From the NCBI GenBank assembly GCA_020355185.1, contig CP070662.1, positions 756,791 to 799,426 on the forward strand: a stretch of 42,636 nt of DNA, read 5' to 3'. The notes below the pieces were generated by a model. The model ran no database searches. It saw only the letters and a list, made by a program, of their open reading frames with translations, and was not told where the DNA came from. Position numbers and translations under genes: made by a program. Numbering within the stretch: position 1 is the first letter of the stretch; each line of letters starts with the position of its first letter. The DNA comes from an archaeon. GTDB lineage: Archaea > Aenigmatarchaeota > Aenigmatarchaeia > PWEA01 > JAGHBM01. This document shows positions 19,398 to 31,171 of the stretch, piece by piece.

Positions 19398-19862
19398 GGT
19401 GTGTTGGGATAGCCCGTCTTCTGTGAGGCCTATCGCCGTCCTGGACGGGTCACCTGAAGGCCATTTGGCATTCGTCATCGCCGAGACGCACACTGCGTGT
19501 GCGTCGGTCTTTAGCGACCTACCCGCTGCTCTCTCGTCATCACAGCCTACTTGGTCTTGCACCACGCGTGCCAGTCCGTTTCATCCCTTCCACCGAACAT
19601 CACTTAAAGTTCATCTGGAGACTTGACGCAGGTCGAAGACCTACGTCTACCGTTTGGGTGGGTGGGTATCGTTTCTGATACTGGCCTGGACCTCTCGGCC
19701 CAGCTGCTTGCACAAACTTGGGACTGCATCCCAAATCTTCGGGATAGAATCCCGAAACCGCGATTCAACGGTGGACGGAGCTTCCTCAGTTATCCGAAGA
19801 CCTCCCGCGATGAACAGGAGGTTTTCATCCCTACCAACCGAGAGCCAATTCCGCAACACACC
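19398..19862 (-). ncRNA. rnpB: RNase P RNA
   Basis: Minus-strand read: 5' GGUGUGUUG pairs with 3' CAACACACC (P1). CR-I-like ACUGAGGAAGCUCCGUCC and CR-V-like CACAGAAGACGGGCUAU form P4 (AGC-U-CCGUC with GACGGGCU, bulged U). GC-rich island that gives only overlapping spurious ORFs. Confidence 0.7.
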
Positions 19863-19959
19863 AAATAAATAGGGAAAAGCAAGATATATAAAGATTTGTG
19901 GGGGCCAATTCCTTGTTGATCTTCAACAATTTAATATAACTTGATACAAATAAAATATC

Positions 19960-20829
19960 ATGATTAATAGAAAAGTCCTAACCGTAATTTTAATTTCAGT
20001 CTTATCTGCAGGTATTACAACGGTTATCGCCAGAATTGCTTATAGTTCTGGAAAGATAAATCCGCTATCTTACTCGATGAATGTTTTGTTACTGACTCTT
20101 TTTTTCTTCGCTTTATTCACGGTTTTACGCAAAGAACCTCTGCGTAATTTCTCTAAGCCCATTTGGATTCACTTGTGTGTATTAGGTATTTTAGGCACAA
20201 CTATTGGGATGGGTATTTACTACATTGGACTAAATTATACTACAGCTATAAACACATCATTTATTATGAGATTACAGGTACCAGTTACAGCTCTTTTTGC
20301 ATTTCTTTTTTTAGGAGATAGATTAACTAAAAAACAAATTTGGTCTACCGTGTTTATGTTCATTGGAGCATATTTGATTATGTTTGGATTTAACATTATC
20401 CAACCGAATTTTGGTGATTTGATAATGTTAGCTTCTGCAGTAGTTTTTGGATTGACAAATGTATATTACAAAAAAACACTTGCTAAAAAAGTTCCAGTAT
20501 TTACTGTCCTATTATATCGTTCGGTTTTTGGAGTTAGTGTTCTTGTTTTATTAATTGTAGCTGTGCTTAGAGAACAAACACTACAGGCGCTATTTACTAT
20601 TCCACACCTGGTTATATTACAGGCATTTTTATATGCTATTTATATATTCGGGTTTTATTATGGTATCAAAGAAATTGGACCAGGACCAACCACAATATTT
20701 TACTTAATTGTACCACTAATAACAGTAATTTTGGCATTCATTGTTCTTGGAGAATCTTTAGTTTTAACTCAGGGTCTTGGCGCAGCATTAGTTTTAATTG
20801 GAAGTTACTTTATGATTAAGAATAAGTAA
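19960..20829 (+). CDS. EamA/DMT-family transporter
   Basis: 289 aa, ten hydrophobic segments as two repeated halves, typical DMT layout. Confidence 0.8.
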   Translation: MINRKVLTVILISVLSAGITTVIARIAYSSGKINPLSYSMNVLLLTLFFFALFTVLRKEPLRNFSKPIWIHLCVLGILGTTIGMGIYYIGLNYTTAINTSFIMRLQVPVTALFAFLFLGDRLTKKQIWSTVFMFIGAYLIMFGFNIIQPNFGDLIMLASAVVFGLTNVYYKKTLAKKVPVFTVLLYRSVFGVSVLVLLIVAVLREQTLQALFTIPHLVILQAFLYAIYIFGFYYGIKEIGPGPTTIFYLIVPLITVILAFIVLGESLVLTQGLGAALVLIGSYFMIKNK

Positions 20830-20926
20830 AAATATATAACACTGTTATATTTAAAGTTAATTTTGCACCTACCGTAAATTAATATATATTTTAACATCCA
20901 ATTATAGGGTAGTGATAAAATGACAG

Positions 20927-21148
20927 GTGAATGCCTTTGGACTTTCAAAGTCTTGTAGAAGCGTTCTTTTAGTTTTGTCTAGTTCTGAATCTCATACACA
21001 AAATGAAATTAAAGAGAAAACCAGTCTATCCATCCGTTCTGTGAAGGAATCATTAAAATTTTTGAAAGAGAAAGATCTGGTGAAGGAATACGTAGTCCTT
21101 GGGGATACAAGAAGGAAAAAATATTTTCTAGGTGATATCAATGGATAG
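20927..21148 (+). CDS. small winged-helix transcription regulator
   Basis: 73 aa; HTQNEIKEKTSLSIRSVKESLKFLKEKDLV looks like a MarR/TrmB-type wHTH; GTG start; 17-nt overlap with the next gene. Confidence 0.5.
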   Translation: MNAFGLSKSCRSVLLVLSSSESHTQNEIKEKTSLSIRSVKESLKFLKEKDLVKEYVVLGDTRRKKYFLGDING

Positions 21149-29933: not shown

Positions 29934-29957
29934 GAGTATTCTCGGCTTGTGGCGGTC
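29934..29957. repeat. 5'-flank half of the 23S processing stem
   Basis: gagtattctcggcttgtggcggtc pairs with 23969-23993. Confidence 0.7.
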
Positions 29958-30261
29958 TCATTAACAAAAATCTCAGCGATCGTCTTAAATATCATTGCGC
30001 AAGCGCTCAAATGGTGTTCACTAAATCATCGTTCTTGTTTAGACCTAAGTCCTCTACCCCTATAATAGAGAACCGCATATACTGGTATCTTAACGAAAAC
30101 ATCCCAGGGCAAGAAAGCTAGTCTTTACTTTTTACGCCCTGTTTAATTCATAATAGACACCTAAAAGCATTTTATATATGCCCCTGACACGTATTTAAAG
30201 GTTTCTATCGTTTTTCGGTATATATCCAGATTTAAATGCCTTTGCCTTTAGAAAATTAATT

Positions 30262-30894
30262 ATGAAGTCAAAAGATTACTCTAAGGTGCTTGAAAAACAG
30301 GTAAAAAGTGGCAATCCCGACATTCAAAAGCTCTATGAGGACACTTTGGACTATATTGACGGAAAAAAAGCCGGCAAGAACTTCAAATTTTATGCCGGTA
30401 TTCTGGAGCGGGACGGAATTATAATAGAAGTGAAGAAAATCGATAAAACCTACCTGAATGCCATAGATATGTGCCTGGGCAAAAAAGACAGGGAAGGAAA
30501 AGTGATTAAAGACAGCGGAGTTAAAAAATTCCCCGATCTCGTATCAAAACCGTCCTTGGAAAAAAGCATAAAAAGCGCAGAAATGAACAATGGCAATTTT
30601 AATGATTGTTACATCTGGATTGGTCCTTCCGCTTATTTCAAATGGAACGAAAGGGGTCTTTGTGGGGTTAAAGCTCAAATGGACGCTGGTATTGACGTTG
30701 GAATTGTCTCCTGTGATATAGATATTTTCGGCAACATTATCGAGGCAACCCCAAAGTCTTTTATAAACTGTTTGAACTTCAAAAAAATTCATAAAAAAAT
30801 TAAAAAGCATTCGTATCCTTTAAAAGATTTTGAAATATTCAAAGAGACTATAAGCAGGCTGGACAAGGTTATAAGAGACTATAACAAACGATAA
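30262..30894 (+). CDS. hypothetical protein (210 aa)
   Basis: Intact frame; gatttaaatgcc TATA-like box ~30 nt upstream; no motif recognised. Confidence 0.45.
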   Translation: MKSKDYSKVLEKQVKSGNPDIQKLYEDTLDYIDGKKAGKNFKFYAGILERDGIIIEVKKIDKTYLNAIDMCLGKKDREGKVIKDSGVKKFPDLVSKPSLEKSIKSAEMNNGNFNDCYIWIGPSAYFKWNERGLCGVKAQMDAGIDVGIVSCDIDIFGNIIEATPKSFINCLNFKKIHKKIKKHSYPLKDFEIFKETISRLDKVIRDYNKR

Positions 30895-30961
30895 ACCTTT
30901 ATATTTCTTTCTCAATTACTTAATTCGACCGAAATGCTGTATACAGCATTTCCCGTCATTT

Positions 30962-31171
30962 GGGCCGGTAGATCAACGGAAGACCGACGCTCACGAGCAA
31001 AGCGAGTGTGCGTCTCCGTGTTAGATCGCTACCCTTGCACACCCGAAAGGCTTTATGAAGTCAGAAGGGGTTGAGAAAGGTAGAGGTTGTGGGTTCAAGT
31101 AGGCCGACGCGCACGAGCAAAGCGAGTGTGCGTCTGTGCAACCAGTCTGGAAATTCCCACCCGGTCCACCA
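30962..31171 (+). tRNA. tRNA-Ala(UGC) with three introns (D-loop, anticodon loop, T-loop), encoded CCA
   Basis: Acceptor GGGCCGG/CCGGUCC with the G3:U70 alanine identity pair, D stem GAUC/GAUC, anticodon arm CUACC-CUUGCA..A-GGUAG, T stem GUGGG/CCCAC. 210 nt against ~77 nt mature. Confidence 0.8.

Follow-up and report, generated by a model that had tools for sequence, protein, structure and literature searches.

A hairpin module shared by small tRNA introns, a predicted intron in the RNase P RNA gene and an inverted copy in the 23S rRNA gene of an Aenigmatarchaeota genome

Several stable-RNA genes of the archaeon studied here (G000, assigned to Aenigmatarchaeota, a DPANN lineage) share a small hairpin, hereafter the module. 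We analysed a stretch of 42,636 nucleotides (the window; CP070662.1, positions 756,791 to 799,426) from one contig of a scaffolded assembly of 832,879 bases with 44% G+C and an estimated completeness of 79%. In this window the module is found in the genes for RNase P RNA and tRNA-Ala and, in inverted orientation, in the 23S rRNA gene. Most copies appear to form the inner arm (h') of small introns with a bulge-helix-bulge (BHB) motif. Unless marked as genome positions, coordinates are those of the window, and R1 denotes a covariance model of the module that was built from the copies of this analysis. The features in question are the following.

19398 to 19862, minus strand: interrupted RNase P RNA gene of 465 nt, supported by a match to Rfam RF00373, by its P1 pairing and by alignment with relatives
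19477 to 19510, minus strand: predicted BHB intron of 34 nt in RNase P RNA, based on a helix H, two 3-nt bulges and a product that matches relatives
19483 to 19509, minus strand: module forming the h' arm of this predicted intron (GA, CC bulge, 9-bp stem, GCA loop, UC; R1 44.2 bits)
24017 to 29906, minus strand: 23S rRNA gene with several introns (Rfam RF02540, 1969.6 bits; 5890 nt against a model of 2987 positions)
29148 to 29177, plus strand: module capping a domain II hairpin of 23S, in inverted orientation and thus antisense to the rRNA (R1 36 bits)
30962 to 31171, plus strand: tRNA-Ala(UGC) gene with three introns, parsed by eye (G3:U70, UGC anticodon, CCA end) and compared with orthologues
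30981 to 31022, plus strand: D-loop intron of tRNA-Ala, with the module at 30982 to 31016 (R1 38 bits)
31100 to 31154, plus strand: T-loop (59/60) intron of tRNA-Ala, with the module at 31102 to 31136 (R1 40.8 bits)
38788 to 38817, minus strand: related hairpin with a lower score, within the tRNA-His 5' leader (R1 24.8 bits)

Read 5' to 3', the module starts with the last nucleotide of a 5' bulge and continues with G-A, a bulge of two pyrimidines (CC, CU or UU), a 9-bp stem starting GAYGY, a GNA triloop or an 11-nt loop, the return strand, and a U-C paired with the G-A. Immediately flanking it, some four nucleotides of the exon form a helix with a similar number at the 3' end of the intron, and the cut sites lie in two 3-nt bulges. 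A first-pass annotation of this DNA had described four copies, in RNase P RNA, in two introns of tRNA-Ala and in 23S, and all four are present where it had placed them, as are the two identical 11-nt blocks common to the RNase P and tRNA-Ala D-loop copies. Shuffles predict 0.03 occurrences of the pattern CCGACGC-N(8-30)-GCGTC, whereas the window contains four, a number that none of 100 shuffles reaches. The tRNA-His hairpin, 11 nt upstream of the tRNA 5' end and just past an A/T-rich box, makes a fifth copy in the window.

Diverged copies beyond the first four were found in the genome by loose pattern searches and by BLAST of intron regions. Across the 833-kb genome, R1 returns 12 matches at E < 1e-4 and about eight weaker ones, in total about 20 copies. 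Every inspected R1 match lies in a stable-RNA gene (tRNA, RNase P, 23S) or a tRNA leader; the tRNA matches comprise T-loop introns (usually at 59/60), D-loop introns, a single anticodon-loop intron, in tRNA-Tyr, and the leaders of two pre-tRNAs. At least ten tRNA genes carry the module in D-, anticodon- or T-loop introns; closely similar introns are thus found at different positions of non-orthologous tRNA genes, as is typical of the transposed tRNA intron families of Thermoproteales. At least 16 copies are in sense orientation and one, that in 23S, is antisense. A fifth strict-pattern match, at genome position 512542 in a coding region, was rejected as it is not a hairpin of the module type. 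No Rfam family at gathering thresholds covers the module. Among 151 genomes of the class, 19 from seven families carry it in the same kinds of places, and copies in these other genomes are also found directly 3' of TATA-like boxes.

Already in an alignment of ten copies, five of 11 pairs show compensatory changes, and in 49 copies from 19 genomes 95.2% of the cells are paired, with double changes in seven of the 11 pairs (40 cells). No shuffle matches the observed percentage paired, the number of double-change cells, the pair types or the covariation score, although 3 of 500 reach the count of seven double-change pairs, and slid controls of the 49-copy alignment collapse. One stem position is mostly a strand-specific G-U (29/48). 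The structure of the module is under selection.

Two related arrangements were also observed. A second hairpin type, UUGACGC...GCGUCUUUGCUGG, lies in or beside tRNA genes at genome positions 330798-330827 (minus strand), 742427-742447 (minus strand) and 424988-425007 (plus strand). In another family of the class, tandem arrays of two to four copies of a unit of about 38 nt (the module plus UUUCGCUGCUC) follow GGGCGAAA in the apparent variable-arm region of tRNA-Ser/Leu genes (L047 of G086, L057, L067 of G047, L055, L070 of G124).

In the RNase P RNA gene, P1 is formed by 19862-19854 pairing with 19406-19398, and a TATA-like box lies upstream. RF00373 aligns with 19511-19796 (model positions 21-244); its score of 73.8 bits falls short of the gathering threshold, 84, and the alignment ends at the first hairpin base, position 244 of the 288 in the model. 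The insert accounts for standard models missing this gene. In the insert-free gene of a congener (G004), RF00373 aligns over its full length with 127.6 bits and the consensus is unbroken at the same place, where CGCuuA, the strand after P15, is followed by GucGAAUGCc, the 3' strand of P2. The hairpin of G000 therefore splits a conserved strand between Rfam positions 244 and 245; it lies past P15/P16 on the 3' side, in the joining strand that leads to the 3' strand of P2, at the site where bacterial RNase P RNA carries P18. The first-pass annotation had aligned the hairpin with the P11/P12 (CR-II) region and suggested, as one of two possibilities, that the introns mimic a P12-like element native to RNase P. 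The position contradicts this alignment, and a native element is refuted by the absence of the hairpin from most RNase P RNAs of the phylum, the congener included. With the archaeal P12 that holds kink-turns, the binding site of L7Ae/Rpp38, the insert shares being a GC-rich hairpin in an archaeal RNase P RNA gene; however, besides its wrong position, its stem is fully Watson-Crick, its sole bulge is CC and no tandem G-A stands beside a 3-nt bulge, and we rejected this identification.

In a BHB motif, a helix of 4 bp has a 3-nt bulge on either side, and in canonical pre-tRNAs the first two anticodon bases lie within this helix (PMC4090602); from this definition and this anticodon placement it follows that each cut falls after the second bulge nucleotide. 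The RNase P gene reads CGCU, an AAA bulge, the module, GGCG, an AUG bulge and then ACGAAUGCC. CGCU (19516-19513) pairs with GGCG (19482-19479) to give a central helix H of 4 bp, the two 3-nt bulges, B1 AAA (19512-19510) and B2 AUG (19478-19476), lie on opposite strands, and the GA...UC base of the module adjoins both. Rule-based removal of 19510-19477 (34 nt) joins CGCUAA to GACGAAUGCC, a product that equals insert-free G004 letter for letter as well as the Rfam consensus CGCuuAGucGAAUGCc across 244/245. Removal at the bulges would hence restore the conserved mature sequence.

Comparison of RNase P alleles separates what is kept in the insert from what is free to change. Five further alleles (G001, G002, G005, L089, L090) retain helix H and both bulges. 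The inserts of G001, G002 and G005 stand at the identical phosphodiester with CGCU/GGCG and both bulges intact, and the inner hairpins of G001 and G002 (CCAGC-AAUA-GCUGG and CCGGC-CGAGC-GCCGG) are unrelated to the module, while that of G005 (GA-UU-GACAUG-GUUUU-CAUGUC-UC) differs from the one in G000 and has the GA-UU base of the module. L089 and L090, the only contigs obtained in a metagenome scan for intron-bearing RNase P alleles and near-identical to each other, hold a module-type hairpin in the same frame. In at least ten other Aenigmatarchaeota alleles the site is empty. The loops of the inserts (GCA, AAUA, CGAGC, GUUUU, UUUUU) have nothing in common, which makes a conserved tertiary contact of a retained helix unlikely. 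A gene with the catalytic domain of the tRNA-splicing endonuclease EndA is present in G000 (PF01974, 90.9 bits), and in DPANN archaea EndAs that have the L3 loop go together with tRNA genes that are heavily disrupted (PMC5829648). Judged from its sequence and that of its alleles, 19477-19510 is very likely an intron in RNase P RNA.

Other parts of the RNase P RNA gene vary as well. In P12 of G000 (19592-19655, minus strand) there is a lineage-specific GACG...CGUC hairpin of 10 bp, capped by a UUCG loop, and near P7-P9 (about 19700-19745, minus strand) a lineage-specific double hairpin of 42 nt; no BHB was found by eye at either of them. RNA contigs of a relative have 29 different letters at the place of the P12 insertion, a variant that was not found in 41 relatives. 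In a neighbouring family, the RNase P genes of L092-L095 (G013, G010, G020, G016) differ by several hairpin insertions. A GACG...CGUC hairpin precedes CR-V in G013 and G016. Near P5/P7, G016 and G020 carry a copy of the module in inverted orientation that is absent from their congeners G013 and G010.

The introns of tRNA-Ala allow a comparison within the genome. The D-loop intron has the layout AACG, GAA bulge, GA-CC-stem-UC, CGUG, UUA bulge, and its rule-based product, a D-loop AACGGAA, is that of the intron-less G006 and one base apart from that of G033 (AAUGGAA). In the T-loop intron, UUCA is matched with GGAA (three of four pairs), the bulges AGU and AUU lie beside the T stem, and the product is a T-loop UUCAAGU. 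The D-loop intron must be removed for a functional tRNA. As it is necessarily spliced and has the same architecture as the RNase P insert, EndA would be expected to act on the RNase P precursor too; this precursor has a better-paired central helix than the D-loop intron. In both RNase P and the tRNA-Ala D-loop, hairpins have been swapped at fixed intron sites among close relatives. Most tRNA genes of G000 hold between one and four introns and escape standard finders; the Rfam tRNA model identified only 5 genes at E <= 0.001 among 62 candidates in the whole genome. Together with the long 23S and 16S genes (the latter 1863 nt by Rfam), the few tRNAs detectable by models indicate that the stable-RNA genes of G000 are heavily interrupted.

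The copy in the 23S rRNA gene is of a different nature. R1 scores it on the plus strand alone, so its inverted orientation is real, and the compensatory change from C-G to U-A that the first-pass annotation had noted in its stem was confirmed. It lies within an exon, in a stretch of 41 nt that stands in place of a hairpin loop measuring 12 nt in the Rfam model (near positions 736-747). The module is absent here from the congeners G001 and G002, which have a short hairpin, as do more distant relatives. RNA contigs from wetland metatranscriptomes, derived from a close relative and 98.9% identical over the exon, are 24 letters shorter with two changes in the flanks, and reconstruct to a plain 7-bp hairpin with a UUG loop. 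The absence from relatives and from these RNA contigs indicates that G000 recently gained about 27 nt in place of a 3-nt loop, in inverted orientation. Read in the sense of the rRNA, the copy forms an unbroken, irregular helix of 14 bp that contains two bulges of 1 nt, and neither a BHB nor a complementary tail was found around it. It probably stays in the mature rRNA as a helix extension or small expansion segment. In G032, from another family, a hairpin with the same stem (GACGCAUAC...GUAUGCGUC, then UA-UU; L037 270-299) lies about 1.2 kb upstream of the region that aligns with 23S and is oriented in sense.

Further observations concern the processing of the 23S gene itself. In RNA contigs from three metatranscriptomes, 29922 is linked to 24004 through two additional letters (AG), a join that resembles the junction of a circular pre-23S as BHB processing of the rRNA flanks would produce it. 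RNA contigs, and not a DNA run, also join 24543 to 25504 (960 nt), 25778 to 26545 (766), 26754 to 27577 (822), 28797 to 28926 (128 nt) and 28946 to 28990 (43). These five insertions are either spliced, or absent in the close relative supplying the RNA. The three 23S introns with LAGLIDADG open reading frames share a leader of about 60 nt, structured and conserved, 5' of the frame (25798-25870, plus strand; 27545-27485, minus strand; 25470-25405, minus strand), and it is also present in an intron whose LAGLIDADG frame runs antisense to the rRNA. This leader was discarded as a copy of the module, as its structure is different and R1 gives no match.

Taken as a whole, the observations are probably best explained by an intron family with the module as its conserved inner arm (h'), of which the RNase P insert is one member and from which the 23S copy derives as an inverted insert. 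EndA would cut such introns at the two bulges of the BHB and a ligase would join the exons; the RNase P member, too, is most likely cut out and its ends rejoined. The module may spread among permissive sites as DNA, by gene conversion or insertion, while the survival of its copies would be filtered by selection at the RNA level. Such selection would account for the bias in orientation as well as for the G-U pairs. The inverted copies have no explanation at the RNA level and point to copying at the level of DNA. The first-pass annotation had offered a small palindromic element colonising structured-RNA genes in either orientation. This is partly supported, with the element recast as the h' hairpin of BHB introns; its copies are nearly always in sense and show covariation at the RNA level.

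Several points weigh against this explanation. The ligase RtcB (PF01139) was not found in G000, a genome that is 79% complete. RNase P RNA contigs, recovered in three metatranscriptomes, come from a relative only, and none was shown to join 19511 to 19476; rough depth arithmetic on these contigs matched neither the spliced nor the unspliced length and is neutral between the two. Minimum-energy folds lengthen H to 6 bp in four alleles, absorbing two nucleotides of the 3' bulge, and the outer helix in RNase P has merely 2 bp, so the motif would be a relaxed (HBh'-like) one. In G013 and G010, from another family, a 48-nt double hairpin without a BHB occupies the same RNase P site, and it is clear that RNase P RNA in this phylum can accommodate inserted hairpins that are retained. 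Finally, no target-site duplication is visible.

Among the alternatives, the one that fares best sees in the module mainly a functional RNA signal, the site of one processing or chaperone protein in pre-tRNAs, pre-RNase P RNA and pre-rRNA, whose recurrence would reflect selection. The excess of sense copies, the strand-specific G-U, the conservation of the GA...UC flanks and the pyrimidine bulge, and the maintenance of the module across seven families of the class all agree with such a role. The same is true of copies with which several pre-tRNA leaders begin and for which splicing is unnecessary; these leader copies are unexplained by splicing and keep a protein-binding or stabilising signal alive as an explanation. 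However, the inverted copies in 23S of G000 and in RNase P of G016 and G020 cannot offer the same RNA surface, and orthologous introns of close relatives have unrelated hairpins, which makes the module dispensable for splicing. Moreover, no candidate protein was identified, and inspection revealed no kink-turn layout (a 3-nt bulge followed by tandem G-A). As the main cause of the recurrence a signal of this kind is unlikely, yet it is compatible with the BHB intron family and does not exclude it.

A second alternative concerns RNase P alone, where the copy might be a retained peripheral helix, positioned like bacterial P18 and built from an intron hairpin. Bacterial P18 at that site, the double hairpin of G013 and G010, and the two further insertions without BHB in P12 and near P7-P9 of G000 can all be cited in its favour, and splicing of the RNase P insert rests on prediction. 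In a mature RNA, however, the GGCG tail would sequester the conserved CGCU of the core. Six alleles keep the 4-bp helix and the 3-nt bulges while hairpin and loop are free to vary, so that no conserved docking loop is seen, the same architecture is necessarily spliced in tRNA-Ala, and the insert is precisely missing in G004. We thus consider a retained helix distinctly unlikely, somewhat more so than a general RNA signal.

Less probable again is an autonomous palindromic element travelling as DNA, similar to repetitive extragenic palindromic sequences (REP) or miniature inverted-repeat transposable elements (MITE), whose insertions into a compact genome would simply persist in RNA genes. Like these repeats, the module is a short, imperfect palindrome that has a bulge and exists in many copies, sometimes inverted or in tandem, as seen in the inverted copies, in the arrays of the tRNA-Ser/Leu variable-arm region (G086, G047) and in the recent insertion of 27 nt for 3 nt into the 23S loop. 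Loops of the type C-GNA-G also give very stable DNA mini-hairpins. By contrast, target-site duplications and terminal inverted repeats beyond the stem are lacking, no associated transposase was seen, and there are no copies in protein genes or ordinary intergenic DNA; the module is confined to stable-RNA genes with an orientation ratio of at least 16:1. This bias, the covariation and the strand-specific G-U indicate selection at the RNA level, and within introns the module always stands at the exact h' position. Thus, the target duplications, intergenic or coding copies and balanced orientation that mark REP and MITE families were not observed. Finally, a chance or convergent similarity of GC-rich hairpins, conceivable for a core as short and palindromic as GACGC...GCGTC with an unrelated coding match of the loose pattern at genome position 512542, is refuted by the window shuffles and the genome-wide R1 E-values (1e-5 to 5e-8), by shared flanks beyond the palindrome and by the location of all copies in RNA genes.

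The BHB intron family is not without precedent, and the statement of the first-pass annotation that no such element had been described was too strong. Its closest counterparts are the tRNA intron families of Thermoproteales, which were transposed between sites (Fujishima et al. 2010, as summarised in PMC4090602) and whose gain, in the account given there, is thought to have happened at the DNA level by an unknown mechanism. Both depend on the BHB. The present family differs in its DPANN host, in that the shared part is a defined hairpin of 27-35 nt with covariation, and in that the module also occurs in the RNase P gene, in pre-tRNA leaders and, inverted, in 23S and in RNase P of relatives. 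For Asgard archaea, a preprint on tRNA introns leaves the route of intron arrival open and finds no general copying between tRNA genes (bioRxiv 10.64898/2026.10.13.758758).

Outside tRNA and rRNA, a BHB intron is found in the cbf5 pre-mRNA of Crenarchaeota. There, too, a short insert in an essential non-tRNA gene has a helix with 3-nt bulges and its removal restores conserved sequence; the RNase P intron predicted for G000 differs in that its body is visibly the module of tRNA introns of the same genome, and it is known here from sequence. Full-text literature searches in an incomplete library found no description of a BHB intron in an RNase P RNA gene, which is weak evidence of novelty.

The module is clearly a shared sequence that, in the genomes compared, connects introns whose sites and gene classes differ. 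As a rare sequence tag across sites, genes and both orientations, it bears on how archaeal BHB introns arrive at new sites. We can propose, tentatively and with more doubt than confidence, that the module is a self-propagating hairpin from which new BHB introns are made, with stable-RNA genes receiving DNA copies of it in one or the other orientation. A spliceable intron would then arise where a short complement to the upstream exon forms beside the hairpin, for example by hairpin-templated (quasi-palindrome) repair, while at the tips of helices the hairpin would remain as an expansion segment of rRNA or RNase P RNA. In the inverted 23S copy we might be seeing module sequence becoming such an rRNA expansion segment. 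If the RNase P insert is spliced, the ribozyme that trims the 5' ends of tRNAs would depend on the tRNA-splicing endonuclease and ligase, linking two core RNA-processing systems, and if the hairpin does propagate itself, it would represent a traceable mechanism for intron gain in archaea.

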